64,000 bases of DNA, taken from assembly GCA_963719515.1 (NCBI GenBank), contig CAVRCJ010000003.1, positions 192,001-256,000 on the forward strand. The letters run 5' to 3'. The notes beneath the pieces are model-generated. The model ran no database searches and was not told where the DNA came from. It saw only the letters and a program-made list of their open reading frames with translations. The translations under genes and the position numbers were made by a program. Of the stretch, positions 39,133 through 43,677 are shown in pieces. The stretch is from an uncultured cyanobacterium (GTDB lineage Bacteria > Cyanobacteriota > Cyanobacteriia > CAKZMO01). Numbering within the stretch: position 1 is the first letter of the stretch; the number at the start of each line of letters is the position of its first letter.

Positions 39133-39193
39133 GGGGACAGCGTTAATGCCCGCTTCGGAACAAACGCGGCTCTAAATTGATGCAGCTCGGGAT

Positions 39194-39226
39194 CGGCAGC
39201 AGAGGGGGAGCGGAGCTTTGCTGCTG
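39194..39226. terminator. Stem-loop downstream of the AarF gene
   Basis: CGGCAGCAGAG-N11-CTTTGCTGCTG. Confidence 0.45.
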
Positions 39227-39421
39227 TCAAAGAAGCTTACGTTGAGCCCGCAAATCTGCTAATGAGGGTCTCACCCGTTTGACCTCCATTTTCCCAGAGC
39301 GAGAATCGCACCAATATGAAAGCGATCGCCATTTCTTCGCTATCAGTTAAGATAAAAAGCTGGTTGAGAAAAGAAATCAAAAATAGCATTTACTTCCAAG
39401 CTTTAGCTAAGTTAAAATCCT

Positions 39422-40951
39422 ATGACCGCATCGGTTAACAAGTCCGCAACCCTACTGGAACTCCTTGCCGGAGCTGATGACCAGATAGCTTTGACTGCGC
39501 CCGCTAAGCCTAGCCTGACCTATAGACAGCTTCGGCAACACATCGTGGAGCTCGTCGCCCAGCTCAATCAGCTGGGTGTGGGCCGAGGCGATCGCCTCGC
39601 CATTGCCATCCCCAACGGCCCGGAGATGGTGGTCACCTATCTGGCGGCGGCCACCTGCGGCACGGCGGCCCCCCTCAACCCTAAGTACAAGCAAGACGAG
39701 TTTGCCTTCTATTACGAGAGCACCGGGGCGATCGCCCTCATCGTTTTGGGCGAAGGGATTGAGGCCGCCAAGGCAGCGGCAGCCGATATCGACATGACCC
39801 TGATTCAGGCCACCGCTCAAGGCGACGGTACCCTGAGCCTGAAGCAAGTGGGCGGTAAGCAGCGCGATCCTAAGCCCCACGAGCTGGCGGAATCGGAAGA
39901 CATCGCCATGATTTTGCACACCAGCGGCACCACCAGCCGCCCCAAGCGGGTGCCCATTCGCCACCGCAACCTAGCGGCCTCCGCCAGCAACATTATCGGC
40001 ACCTACAGCCTCAGCGATCAGGACCGCGCCCTCTGCGTTATGCCCCTGTTCCACGTCCACGGCATCGTCGCCTCCCTGCTCTCTACCCTGATTTCCGGCG
40101 GCACGGTGATCTGTCCGGCGGGCTTCAACGCCCTGGAGTTCTTTAAGATTCTTGCCGAGTTTCAGCCCACCTGGTATTCGGCGGTGCCCACCATGCACCA
40201 GCTGCTGCTCTCTCGGGCCGAGCGCAATAAGGAGGCGATCGCCGCAGCCCCCCTGCGGTTTATCCGCTCCAGCAGCTCGTCCCTGCCGCCGGTGGTCCTA
40301 GAGCGGCTAGAGGCTACCTTCAATGCCCCGGTGCTCGAAGCCTACAGCATGTCGGAGGCCGCCCACCAAATGACCTCCAACCCCATGCCCCCCGCCGAGC
40401 ATAAGGCGGGCACCGTGGGCAAGGGCTTCGGGGTGGAGGTGAACATTATGGACGAGGGCGGCAGCCTGCTGGAGCAGGGCGGCTTGGGGGAAGTGGTGGT
40501 CAAAGGGGCCAACGTGTTTGACGGCTACGAGGGCAACCCCAAAGCCAACGAAACCGCCTTCACCGGCGGCTGGTTCCGCACTGGGGATCAGGGTGTCTTA
40601 GACGGCGACGGCTACCTATCGCTGACGGGCCGCATTAAGGAGCTAATTAACCGGGGGGGCGAGAAGATTTCGCCGCTGGAGGTGGATAACGTACTGCTGC
40701 GCCACCCCGCCGTGGCGGAAGCCCTGGTGTTTGCCGTCCCCCACAAAACCCTAGGGGAAGATATCCACGCGGCGCTGGTGGTGAGTGAGGCGGTAGAAGA
40801 AAAAGATCTGCGCACCTACTGCGCCGAACACATTGCTGACTTTAAGGTGCCGAAGAAATTTCATATCTTAGACGCGCTGCCCCGAGGGGCCACCGGCAAG
40901 CTGCAGCGGCTCAATATGGCCAAAATGCTCAACCTGACTGGGGAATCATGA
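39422..40951 (+). CDS. Acyl-CoA synthetase, oxalate--CoA ligase (AAE3/PCS60/Oxs)-like
   Basis: LHTSGTTSRPK, PLFHVHG, TWYSAVPTMHQ, LRFIRSSS, APVLEAYSMSEAAHQMTSNP, GRIKELINRGGEKISP, TGKLQR. Confidence 0.85.
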   Translation: MTASVNKSATLLELLAGADDQIALTAPAKPSLTYRQLRQHIVELVAQLNQLGVGRGDRLAIAIPNGPEMVVTYLAAATCGTAAPLNPKYKQDEFAFYYESTGAIALIVLGEGIEAAKAAAADIDMTLIQATAQGDGTLSLKQVGGKQRDPKPHELAESEDIAMILHTSGTTSRPKRVPIRHRNLAASASNIIGTYSLSDQDRALCVMPLFHVHGIVASLLSTLISGGTVICPAGFNALEFFKILAEFQPTWYSAVPTMHQLLLSRAERNKEAIAAAPLRFIRSSSSSLPPVVLERLEATFNAPVLEAYSMSEAAHQMTSNPMPPAEHKAGTVGKGFGVEVNIMDEGGSLLEQGGLGEVVVKGANVFDGYEGNPKANETAFTGGWFRTGDQGVLDGDGYLSLTGRIKELINRGGEKISPLEVDNVLLRHPAVAEALVFAVPHKTLGEDIHAALVVSEAVEEKDLRTYCAEHIADFKVPKKFHILDALPRGATGKLQRLNMAKMLNLTGES

Positions 40952-41919
40952 AGGTCTGTATTGTGGGGGCGGGGGCGATTGGGGGCTACATTGGCGCGAA
41001 GCTAGCTCTGGCCGGAACCGACGTGACGCTGATTGCGCGAGGTGCCCATCTAGAGGCGATGCAGACTCAGGGGCTGACCCTGGAGAGCGAGGGGGAGACA
41101 CAGACAATCCCGGTGACCGCCATGGAGGACATCCGCAAGGCGGGGATTCATAATGTGGTGATTGTCGCTCTCAAGGCTCACAGCGTCCCCAAAGTGGCCG
41201 AAGCGCTACCCGCTCTCTACGGCCCTGACACCCTGGTGATCACCGCCCAGAACGGCGTGCCCTGGTGGTACTTCCGCAAGCTCGACCACCCCAAACAGGA
41301 CTACTGCATCCAGTCCGTTGACCCCAACGGCATTGTGGAGGCCAACGTTCCTGTGGACCGGGTGATTGGCTGCGTGGTCTATCCCGCCGCTGAACTCTCG
41401 GCCCCCGGCGTAGTGCGCCACATCGAGGGCGATCGCTTCTCCTTAGGGGAGCTAGACGGCTCCAAGAGCGATCGCCTCAAGGCGCTGTCCAAGACCCTGC
41501 GTCAGGCGGGCATCAAGGCTCCGATGCGCAGCGAGATTCGCAACGAGCTGTGGGTGAAGCTGTGGGGCAACCTGGCCTTTAACCCCATCAGCGCCCTCAC
41601 CCGCGCCACCCTAGAAGATATCTGTCAGTATTCTCTGACGCGAGACCTAGCGCGAAACATGATGGAGGAAGCCCAGGCGATCGCCGAAAGCCTGGGAGTC
41701 ACATTCAGAATTCCCCTAGAGCAGCGTATTGATGGGGCAGAGCAGGTGGGCGCCCACAAGACCTCAATGCTGCAGGATATCGAGTCAGGGCGACCGACTG
41801 AAGTCGATGCCCTAGTCGGAGCGGTGGCCGAGCTGGGTCGCCTTGTGGAGATTCCCACCCCCCATATCGATGCGGTTTATGCCAGCGTCAAGCTTCTGGA
41901 AAAGACGCTGGCAGAATAA
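40948..41919 (+). CDS. panE: Ketopantoate reductase (ApbA/PanE) family oxidoreductase, PanE2-like
   Basis: GAGAIGG, QNGVPWWYF, WVKLWGNLAFNPISALT, HKTSMLQD..GRPTE; ATGA overlap with the ligase. Confidence 0.85.
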   Translation: MKVCIVGAGAIGGYIGAKLALAGTDVTLIARGAHLEAMQTQGLTLESEGETQTIPVTAMEDIRKAGIHNVVIVALKAHSVPKVAEALPALYGPDTLVITAQNGVPWWYFRKLDHPKQDYCIQSVDPNGIVEANVPVDRVIGCVVYPAAELSAPGVVRHIEGDRFSLGELDGSKSDRLKALSKTLRQAGIKAPMRSEIRNELWVKLWGNLAFNPISALTRATLEDICQYSLTRDLARNMMEEAQAIAESLGVTFRIPLEQRIDGAEQVGAHKTSMLQDIESGRPTEVDALVGAVAELGRLVEIPTPHIDAVYASVKLLEKTLAE

Positions 41920-41928
41920 CCCCGTGTC

Positions 41929-42426
41929 TCAGGCCGCCTGAGGCAGAGACTCGCCTCCCCGAGGCTTTCCCCAGTCTCTTCTGGCTGTAGCCTGCTCAAT
42001 CACCCGCTGCAGCCGAGGAATCTCGCCGCTGTTGTAAACCCGAAACTCGCCTTCTAGGGTGGCGTTAGTTTTTCGCACCGCTTGGTTAAGGACTAGGGAG
42101 CCTTGGGGATCGGAAACGGAGCGATGAAACGTGCCGGGTGGAATCCTCAGAATGTCGCCGTTAGCTTCAAGGCGCACCACGTGAAACGGCACGCGCCAGG
42201 ATAGGTTCACCAGACAAAACGTCCGCCCCCCGCTCAGCGCCAGCAGGTTGTCCTCCTGTCGGGGGTGGAGGTAGAACTGCCAGTTGTTGCGGGCGTCGTT
42301 GTTGGGGCTGACGGCGGGACCGTCGTGAGACACTAGATCGCGGGCGTTGGAGGTGTTGATGGTGATATCAAAGAACTTGACGCCCGGCGTGTCGCGAAAC
42401 TTCTGATAGGAGATGAGTTCAAACAT
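41929..42426 (-). CDS. RmlC-like cupin-fold protein (cyanobacterial family)
   Basis: FRDTPGVKFFDI, DLV.H..PAVSP, YLHPRQEDNL..LSG.R, IPPGTFHRSVS, NQAVR. Confidence 0.75.
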   Translation of the reverse strand: MFELISYQKFRDTPGVKFFDITINTSNARDLVSHDGPAVSPNNDARNNWQFYLHPRQEDNLLALSGGRTFCLVNLSWRVPFHVVRLEANGDILRIPPGTFHRSVSDPQGSLVLNQAVRKTNATLEGEFRVYNSGEIPRLQRVIEQATARRDWGKPRGGESLPQAA

Positions 42427-42792: not shown

Positions 42793-43677
42793 ATGAACAT
42801 TTTACATTTCCAGATTCTGGCGGCGATTGTCGAGCACGGCAGCTTCTCCGGCGCGGCGGTTCACCTCGATTTGTCTCAGTCTGCCGCAAGTCGGGCGATC
42901 GCCGCCCTTGAAGATGAACTCGGGGTGACGCTGCTCGTGCGCGGGCGCTTCGGTGCGCGGCTAACGCCCGTAGGGGAAAGGGTGATGAGCCACGCCCATC
43001 AGATCCTGCAGGGGCAGGAGCTCATTGAGGCTGAGGTGAACCTGCACAAAGGACTCAACAGCGGACACCTGCGCATTGCCTCATTTCGCAGCGCCGCCAC
43101 CCACGTTTTGCCGCCGGTCATTGCCCAGTTTCGTCAGCGGTTTCCCGGCGTAGATATCTCCTTAGATGAGCTTGATCCGCTGGGGGTGGAGCGGGTGCTA
43201 CGGTCGGGTGCTGCCGATATCGGCATGCTGCCGCTCCCCCGCTCGGAGGAATTTGAGACCTGGGAGGTAGAGCGGGATGAATACGTCGTGCTGCTGCCTA
43301 GCCAGGTGTCTCTCCCAGAGCAGCTGAGCTGGGAGTACCTGTCGCTTCACGAGTTCATCTTATATAACTACGCCGAATGCACCTCGGCGGTGCGCAAGCA
43401 CTGGGCGCACTGGGACCAGGTCCTCAACATCGCCTACGAAATTAAAGAAGACTCCACCATCGTCAGCATGGTGGCTCAAGGTCTAGGGGCCGCCATTTTG
43501 CCCCGGCTGACGGCGCTTCCCATTCCGCCGACGGTGCAGGTGCGATCGCTCCCCGTTCCCCTAGAGCGCGTGGTAGGGGCCGCCATTGTGGCCAACTCCC
43601 TACAGCCGCCCACTACCTTCGTGTTTTTAGACTTACTGCGGGGCCAGAGCGTATTTAAGCGCGATCGCACCGGATAA
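42793..43677 (+). CDS. LysR-family transcriptional regulator
   Basis: GSFSGAA..L.LSQSAASRAIAALEDELGVTL, LTPVG, MVAQGLGAAILP. Confidence 0.95.
   Translation: MNILHFQILAAIVEHGSFSGAAVHLDLSQSAASRAIAALEDELGVTLLVRGRFGARLTPVGERVMSHAHQILQGQELIEAEVNLHKGLNSGHLRIASFRSAATHVLPPVIAQFRQRFPGVDISLDELDPLGVERVLRSGAADIGMLPLPRSEEFETWEVERDEYVVLLPSQVSLPEQLSWEYLSLHEFILYNYAECTSAVRKHWAHWDQVLNIAYEIKEDSTIVSMVAQGLGAAILPRLTALPIPPTVQVRSLPVPLERVVGAAIVANSLQPPTTFVFLDLLRGQSVFKRDRTG

Follow-up and report, generated by a model that had tools for sequence, protein, structure and literature searches.

A route for oxalate that joins an oxalyl-coenzyme A (CoA) synthetase, Oxs, to the reductase PanE2 is said to have been described in Methylorubrum/Methylobacterium extorquens AM1 by Schneider et al. 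in 2012. Here we analyze a pair of genes for the same two enzyme types, an oxalate--CoA ligase and a PanE2-type reductase, which lie on a stretch of 64,000 nucleotides (the window; G000:C3:192001-256000) from an uncultured cyanobacterium whose genome, G000, measures 5.28 Mb and is 100% complete. The predicted reaction, from oxalate through oxalyl-CoA to glyoxylate, is that of AM1, and we consider it probable that the pair forms an oxalate-to-glyoxylate module with the chemistry and direction proposed in the initial annotation. The setting differs, however, because the host is an oxygenic phototroph in which searches for OxlT, Oxc, Frc and formate dehydrogenase found none, so that ATP and NADPH would be made with light, and because the predicted exit is the C2 glycine branch rather than the serine cycle, the downstream route of glyoxylate in AM1. 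The enzymology is already known, and what is new is the clade in cyanobacteria; no description of the pair in cyanobacteria was found in the literature searched, a search outside which most subscription papers fell.

PanE2 has been put to use in vitro to reduce oxalyl-CoA (PMC8411744) and, in the same function, in yeast together with Fat2/Pcs60 (PMC12686821, PMC10127448). A study on Cupriavidus necator H16 (PMC7486775) describes ApbA2 as a glyoxylate dehydrogenase of the CoA-acylating type, encoded near frc-oxc, with glyoxylate passing onward by Gcl; the apbA2 product is 51% identical to PanE2, deletion of the gene slows growth on oxalate, and the oxalyl-CoA route is given there as active in glycolate use and inactive in phosphoglycolate salvage. 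Our locus resembles this system in that an ApbA fold would link oxalyl-CoA and glyoxylate in a host with phosphoglycolate salvage, but in G000 the ligase depends on ATP, and searches for frc, oxc and gcl there found none. Plants, according to PMC8905533, turn oxalyl-CoA by decarboxylation into formyl-CoA plus CO2, whereas the reductase partner would here keep the carbon. The oxalate decarboxylase (Odc) branch of 2-phosphoglycolate metabolism in Synechocystis likewise represents cyanobacterial oxalate handling beside the glyoxylate pool, but, following PMC7486775, it runs in the opposite direction, is CoA-independent and loses carbon as CO2.

The two enzymes and their predicted reaction

The ligase, of the ANL adenylate-forming fold, comprises AMP-binding (PF00501) and AMP-binding_C (PF13193) domains in Pfam and scores below the cut-off for every one of the best 25 NCBIfam models. 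All four PDB sequences matched at E<=1e-60 are oxalyl-CoA synthetases (6qjz, 1.4e-129; 5ie0, 2e-126; 8aff, 3.6e-113; and 8atd), and the best of them, the plant and yeast enzymes LsOCS (6qjz), AtAAE3 (5ie0) and Pcs60 (8aff), have the same oxalate pocket as the ligase. In AtAAE3 this pocket is lined by V215, H216, C288, S289, A313, M314, H319 and K500, with S289, H319 and K500 in contact with oxalate, and with conservation of S289 and H319 limited to oxalyl-CoA synthetases (PMC8905533); a catalytic lysine is described for the yeast oxalyl-CoA synthetase (OCS) in a bioRxiv paper on that enzyme. The aligned positions of the ligase are V212, H213, S284, S285, S309, M310, H315 and K493. Six of the eight residues thus equal those of AtAAE3, including all three oxalate contacts (S285, H315 and K493), the differences being S284 for C288 and S309 for A313. 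The serine, histidine and lysine contacts are retained in stand-alone cyanobacterial and proteobacterial homologues, and none of six further AMP-ligase matches in G000 has the oxalate pocket. By sequence the ligase is a member of the oxalyl-CoA synthetase family AAE3/Pcs60/Oxs, with a predicted preference for oxalate.

It is very unlikely that the pair acts on a related small acid instead, such as glyoxylate, oxamate, malonate or another 2-oxo-acyl-CoA. The two substituted pocket positions would allow for this, D-mandelate dehydrogenases belong to the PanE fold, and the grass-pea OCS also ligates glyoxylate, if about 60-fold less efficiently (PMC8905533). Yet all direct contacts to oxalate are retained, and the same pocket occurs in ligases encoded beside oxlT.

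The reductase consists of ApbA and ApbA_C domains (Pfam) and scores 477.7 bits with NF005089 (cut-off 223) and 210.3 bits with TIGR00745 (cut-off 141.35), a model that also covers non-PanE members of the subfamily. Its predicted structure (pLDDT 94.6) has as top fold match 3ghy, an uncharacterised Ralstonia protein (TM 0.94, root-mean-square deviation 1.4). Sequence identity to a protein of Methylobacterium bullatum is 53%; it is 50-52% to a Cupriavidus metallidurans homologue, 32% to one native cyanobacterial ApbA and 23% to E. coli PanE (b0425), and a quick tree separates the reductase from the native cyanobacterial ApbA clade. The nearest relative (92%) is labelled 'Elainellaceae cyanobacterium' and close relatives bear cyanobacterial labels, in keeping with a cyanobacterial host; the named database labels all read '2-dehydropantoate 2-reductase'. 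All four motifs highlighted in the initial annotation are present: the ligase carries FIRSSS from residue 280 and EAYSMSEAAHQMTSNP from residue 306, the reductase NGVPWWYF and KLWGNLAFNP from residues 102 and 204.

With E. coli PanE the reductase shares the fold and the catalytic set N98, K176, S244 and E256, but it differs by low identity, by replacement of N194 and N241 and by an insert, about 20-25 residues long, that follows N98. Arg31 of E. coli PanE takes part in NADPH binding. Two papers assign carboxylate, 2-oxo and catalytic functions to N98, K176, N180, N184, S244, E256 and K72 (PMC3478992, PMC10127515), and the 4-OH of the substrate is bound by N194 and N241 in the model of one of them (PMC10127515). 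The reductase retains equivalents of R31, K72, N98, K176, N180, N184, S244 and E256, and the carboxylate, oxo and catalytic residues are present in 102-103 of 103 clade members. The 4-OH-binding asparagines that would mark a true PanE are missing: N194 corresponds to L222 and N241 to H270, and in all 103 members the former position holds L, Q or M and the latter an invariant histidine. The reductase is likely, as far as these comparisons go, to belong to the PanE2/ApbA2 family of oxalyl-CoA reductases and is predicted to have that activity.

How might the two enzymes work together? In all likelihood, the ligase would first convert oxalate and ATP by way of oxalyl-AMP to oxalyl-CoA, a step that is effectively one-way because pyrophosphate is removed. 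The reductase would then read oxalyl-CoA as a 2-oxo acid that bears S-CoA at C2: N212 and S273 would grip the carboxylate, N102 and K204 would hold and protonate the thioester carbonyl, hydride would pass from NADPH directly to oxalyl-CoA, and the resulting hemithioacetal would collapse into glyoxylate and CoA. No invariant cysteine exists across the clade members, making a thioacyl-enzyme intermediate unlikely. Our guess is that the clade-specific insert (approximately residues 105-128) might contact CoA. Finally, glyoxylate would probably be converted to glycine by an SGAT-like aminotransferase and so enter the photorespiratory C2 pool.

An oxidative flow, whereby surplus glyoxylate becomes oxalyl-CoA and either leaves in the form of oxalate, as through an overflow valve, or serves as an oxalyl donor, is highly improbable. 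An AMP-forming ligase does not run in reverse where pyrophosphatase is active, and no acyltransferase or non-ribosomal peptide synthetase (NRPS) adjoins the pair within the window. In other cyanobacteria oxalate-pocket ligase domains do begin NRPS proteins, so that oxalyl donors have a use there, and ApbA2 is described as reversible and has been proposed to oxidize glyoxylate in C. necator (PMC7486775); the pull in C. necator, however, comes from Oxc, which was over the cut-off in none of the 24 genomes tested, G000 included.

The NRPS-type proteins just mentioned have the architectures A-T-C-A-T, A-T-TE and A-T, and are candidate oxalyl-starter assembly lines (Table 1). Their serine, histidine and lysine contacts are present in G143, G311 and G208; the histidine is replaced in G228. 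The reductase is missing in three of these four cyanobacteria, and the neighbours include a PPTase at one locus and a sulfotransferase with a DegT aminotransferase at another. Separately, three proteobacterial loci have, close to the reductase, a second, distant AMP ligase (31-32%) whose alignment shows a gap where the pocket histidine would be.

Neighbourhoods and distribution of the pair

Gene neighbourhoods were counted at the best 80 loci of at least 597 reductase relatives in genome_contigs, many on short contigs, and neighbour gene calls at representative loci were checked against NCBIfam. The pairing of ligase and reductase exceeds chance, since a ligase is present at 29 of these 80 best loci, at 21 of the 29 within 600 bp. 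oxlT occurs at 21 loci, oxc at 17 and gcl at 6; at least one of ligase, oxc and oxlT is found at 54, and oxc or oxlT at 30. Methylobacterium bullatum has the gene order oxlT-reductase-ligase, its ligase being 52% identical to that of G000. Proteobacterial reductase loci also carry tctA of the tripartite tricarboxylate transporter (18/80) or TauE-family genes (13/80), whose products are candidate oxalate importers other than OxlT. In several genomes of family f31, the ligase has genes for ABC transporters of the Bmp/PnrA family next to it or close by (L145, L146, L147, L158, L159), in G161 and G208 directly upstream on the same strand; this may reflect an importer or chance synteny.

Across 401 genomes of the phylum (reductase at E<=1e-60, ligase at E<=1e-80), the reductase was found in 17, the ligase in 22 and both in 16, with a stand-alone ligase of about 60% identity or more in 16 of the 17 reductase-bearing genomes. 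The 16 carriers span seven genera and three families. The pair is thus conserved across cyanobacteria, a point that the initial annotation had set as a check, but its distribution is patchy (16 of 401 genomes), and the genes are adjacent in 6 carriers and unlinked in 10. The latter include all eight genomes of g60, a genus with reductases that cluster with named records of Nostoc. Those 10 genomes have retained both genes despite the lack of linkage. Among 61 relatives the reductase occurs in five and the ligase in three (G000, G004 and G055), all three with the reductase. Adjacent genes were also seen in named records of Leptolyngbya sp. AN10, Dulcicalothrix desertica and Chloroflexi.

The 28 cyanobacterial reductases of a quick tree fall into a single clade (SH-aLRT 95) beside Chloroflexi rows. 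When ligase and reductase trees were compared for 26 genomes with both genes, 8 splits at 90% support or more were common to the two (of 15 and 12) and 3 were in conflict, two of them shallow ones inside g60 and one stemming from a long Dehalococcoidia branch. The trees are thus largely congruent, and we conclude that ligase and reductase travel together. Mutual exclusion of the pair and Odc was considered and set aside. Odc (bicupin, TIGR03404) occurs in 6 of the 401 genomes and never together with the pair, and it was found in none of 20 reductase-bearing genomes with S. elongatus detected as a control; both are too rare to judge, the expected overlap being about 0.2, so that their non-overlap carries no weight and the counts say no more than that the pair is the commoner of the two in this sample.

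The six ligase-only genomes comprise three NRPS fusions, two 39-40% matches in very long frames and one stand-alone ligase (G195; L153:7206-8720), which groups with proteobacterial ligases in a quick tree and is adjoined by an MFS transporter. The distant reductases of G019 (L142:8881-9852) and G045 (L005) retain H270 and the insert; an SDR gene comes next, and an HpxZ-like gene is present in each of the two genomes.

Several findings weigh against an oxalate module. Fourteen of the 16 carriers belong to f31, so carriers are not independent. G195 combines its stand-alone ligase with Odc and has no reductase, and in G019 and G045 a 52% reductase occurs with no ligase found. The Asn194/Asn241 pair is also missing from native cyanobacterial ApbA (T and Y), so that it may not mark every PanE. 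The PWWYF insert is not diagnostic, because it is present in 37-39% paralogues (L163, L164) with no oxalate genes nearby. The putative orthology to the tested PanE2, ApbA2 and Oxs rests on neighbourhoods, because the proteins compared are same-genus proxies. The reductase is the sole ApbA_C gene of G000, and in L068, L150 (G361) and L152 (G418) the second gene upstream of the ligase is panB. Finally, an OxlT importer was not found in the whole G000 genome, and gcvP, which is needed for the exit through glycine, is split there into two frames.

Some of these findings would fit a reductase that is (also) a ketopantoate reductase for CoA synthesis, with a ligase for a different small acid and an incidental pairing. 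This is quite improbable. Its uniqueness in G000, panB near the pair in those three loci, passage of TIGR00745 and the uniform database labels would speak for it. However, 33 of the 61 relatives, including three of four same-genus genomes (80-93% complete), show no match to the reductase query (E<=0.001), implying that these organisms have no general need for PanE; G000 has ilvC, whose product can provide ketopantoate reductase activity; the reductase falls outside the native ApbA clade, at 23% identity to E. coli PanE; and its proteobacterial relatives are encoded among oxalate genes. In G418 the pair is split, and it is the ligase, not the reductase, that remains beside panB, the reductase lying beside serA (L152/L151). 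The lack of panB in the window, noted along with that of panC in the initial annotation, is weak evidence, as panB is located elsewhere in G000 (C3:506455) and the reductase is the only ApbA gene. At L068, L150 (G361) and L152/L151 (G418), serA comes after the reductase, and rbcL is about 5 kb off in both G genomes.

Probable outlets for glyoxylate and candidate sources of oxalate

The absence of oxc, frc and oxlT noted earlier for the window extends to the whole of G000, where a genome-wide search also found no CoA_transf_3 (CoA-transferase III), Odc, malate synthase, or orthologue of Gcl, Hyi, Tsr, Frc or YfdE. A complete oxalotrophic module (OxlT, Frc/Oxc, Fdh, and Gcl or the serine cycle) was accordingly not found in G000; the best FdhA-like match lies beside nitrate-assimilation-type genes and below the Fdh cut-off, and a second, weak match on C8 has 26% identity. 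Because the ligase is one-way and no decarboxylase was found, the reductase alone is the visible outlet for oxalyl-CoA. Given that Oxc, Frc, Odc, Gcl and malate synthase were not found in G000, a flow from oxalate through glyoxylate to glycine is likely. The assignment of ligase and PanE2-type reductase and the direction from oxalate to glyoxylate find good support in the pocket residues, in gene neighbourhoods, in the shared occurrence of the two genes and in the fact that no other outlet for oxalyl-CoA was found. gcvP is whole in four other carriers (G004, G055, G070 and G152), and the split gcvP and allC-like genes of G000 possibly represent assembly errors or recent breakage. One thiamine pyrophosphate (TPP)-dependent, acetolactate synthase (ALS)-like gene (E<=1e-20) is present in G000 and at least two in each of 23 other genomes tested; the second ALS-like type (about 550 aa) was not found in G000.

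Where might the oxalate come from? Candidate sources were compared between 18 carriers and 30 non-carriers, with two reductase-only genomes set aside, and none was accepted as general. The purine and oxamate routes were considered on account of GGT-family and Bmp-type ABC neighbours; PuuE of the purine route occurs in 4/18 carriers and 11/30 non-carriers. For the oxamate route (HpxZ-like) the counts are 7/18 and 7/30, and for lactate/glycolate oxidase 11/18 and 9/30 (within f31, 11/14 and 7/9); both are absent in G000. G000 does have the upper urate pathway genes HpxO, UraH, UraD and PuuE, and no AllA, AllD, AllE or FdrA match. Its urate/purine cluster encodes 8-oxoguanine deaminase, UraD, xanthine permease, a porin, UraH and HpxO, with PuuE on a different contig.

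With the same chemistry, the pair could serve internal repair, returning over-oxidised glyoxylate or purine-derived oxalate to glyoxylate in connection with photorespiration. The missing importer, the presence in G000 of GlcD (over the cut-off) and an SGAT-like class V aminotransferase, the upper urate pathway and a GGT-family gene near the reductase in L141 and L143 are consistent with this idea, the GGT family being that of the oxamate hydrolase HpxW. Odc in none of the 20 reductase-bearing genomes would also fit, but that observation is weightless for the reason given above. We regard internal repair as unlikely: a general function of this kind should not be absent from 385 of 401 genomes, all photorespiring, and no candidate source tracks the pair. 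The photorespiratory salvage envisaged in the initial annotation survives insofar as glyoxylate would enter the photorespiratory pool, for which GlcD and the aminotransferase are present; nothing ties oxalate itself to photorespiration, and G000 is without lactate/glycolate oxidase and Odc.

Nostoc, Gloeocapsopsis, Chroococcidiopsis, Leptolyngbya ohadii and Dulcicalothrix account for many of the carriers that have names. These are mostly organisms of soil, crusts, rock or mats, or symbionts. Because of such habitats and the patchy distribution we favour an outside supply, and give oxalate from fungi, plants, mats or rock films a slight edge in probability over an internal source. The most likely physiological job of the pair is detoxification or scavenging of oxalate powered by photosynthetic ATP and NADPH. 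As a tentative proposal, which we hold at rather less than even chances, a co-inherited cyanobacterial Oxs/PanE2 clade, found also in Chloroflexi and represented in Nostoc and in cyanobacteria of soil, crusts and rock, might use light-made ATP and NADPH to reduce oxalate from the environment or a partner (e.g., fungal) to glyoxylate and so supply the photorespiratory glycine pool.

If the oxalate module is real, the purely decarboxylative, Synechocystis-based picture of cyanobacterial oxalate metabolism would be unrepresentative, a reductive, CoA-dependent route being commoner than Odc across the genomes sampled (16 versus 6 of 401). This carbon-keeping route would escape surveys that use frc and oxc as markers, and Nostoc and crust or rock cyanobacteria would become possible oxalate sinks in soils and lichens. 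A common mis-annotation, panE (a vitamin B5 gene) next to 'acyl-CoA synthetase', would be corrected. Engineers would gain a native cyanobacterial two-gene cassette, the yeast version having been built from heterologous parts.

Gene layout and flanking features

The ATGA overlap that was said to join the two genes can be read directly in the sequence, and together with the G-rich Shine-Dalgarno (SD)-like stretch ahead of it (Table 1) it lies at the start of the reductase; the overlap suggests translational coupling. DNA conservation with G004, a genome of the same genus, is confined to a block (84% identity) that spans both genes and nothing more, corresponding to window positions 39417-41922, and we therefore take the unit to be the gene pair. 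The pair (GC 0.61-0.62; GC at third codon positions, GC3, 0.74-0.78) resembles its neighbours (GC 0.58-0.61, GC3 0.73-0.75).

Table 1. Positions of the ligase-reductase pair and of further features; plain numbers refer to the window.
Feature	Position	Strand	Basis or remark
Oxalate--CoA ligase (AAE3/Pcs60/Oxs type), 509 aa	39422..40951	+	sequence comparison
PanE2/ApbA2-type reductase, predicted NADPH-dependent oxalyl-CoA reductase, 323 aa	40948..41919	+	sequence comparison
ATGA stop/start overlap, ligase/reductase	40948..40951	+	read directly
G-rich SD-like stretch before reductase start	40940-40944	+	
AT-richer intergenic region, 289 bp, likely promoter region of the pair	39133..39421	+	GC 0.47
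165-aa open reading frame (ORF), convergent with reductase, 9 bp from reductase stop	41929-42426	-	
gcvP	G000:C17:76821-79620 and C17:84888-85598		two frames; further partial copy with stops nearby
allC-like gene	G000:C6:369571-370762		two frames
Urate/purine cluster	L168:7838-16043 (G000:C10 ~285800-294000); L169:9021-9857		
NRPS-fused ligase domain (G143)	L154:6111-11531		
NRPS-fused ligase domain (G311)	L155:7347-9998		
NRPS-fused ligase domain (G228)	L156:7376-10030		
NRPS-fused ligase domain (G208)	L157:7600-9516		second copy
Distant second AMP ligases	L077:7659-9182; L078:15563-16975; L115:4396-5946		
tctA/TauE-bearing loci	L075, L085, L090, L094, L096, L104, L128, L130, L132, L138 and others		

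Upstream, an ABC1/UbiB kinase gene is separated from the ligase by the intergenic region, whose GC content compares with 0.58-0.62 in genes. Promoter and terminator scans around the pair gave matches that were weak or at chance level: 3 promoter sites were counted in the intergenic region versus 1.0 +/- 0.9 in shuffles, and two weak sigma-70-like matches (39279-39306 and 39389-39418) are consensus matches only. In G001-G004 the two flanks lie on separate contigs. The LysR gene at 42793-43677 is unlikely to be a dedicated regulator, as it accompanies the 165-aa ORF in genomes of the genus that lack the pair. This ORF, with which the next block begins downstream of the reductase, has no family in Pfam or NCBIfam; its look-alikes in the Atlas, which share no common Pfam family, belong to clusters of cyanobacterial proteins that were named automatically, for example as 'redox protein'.

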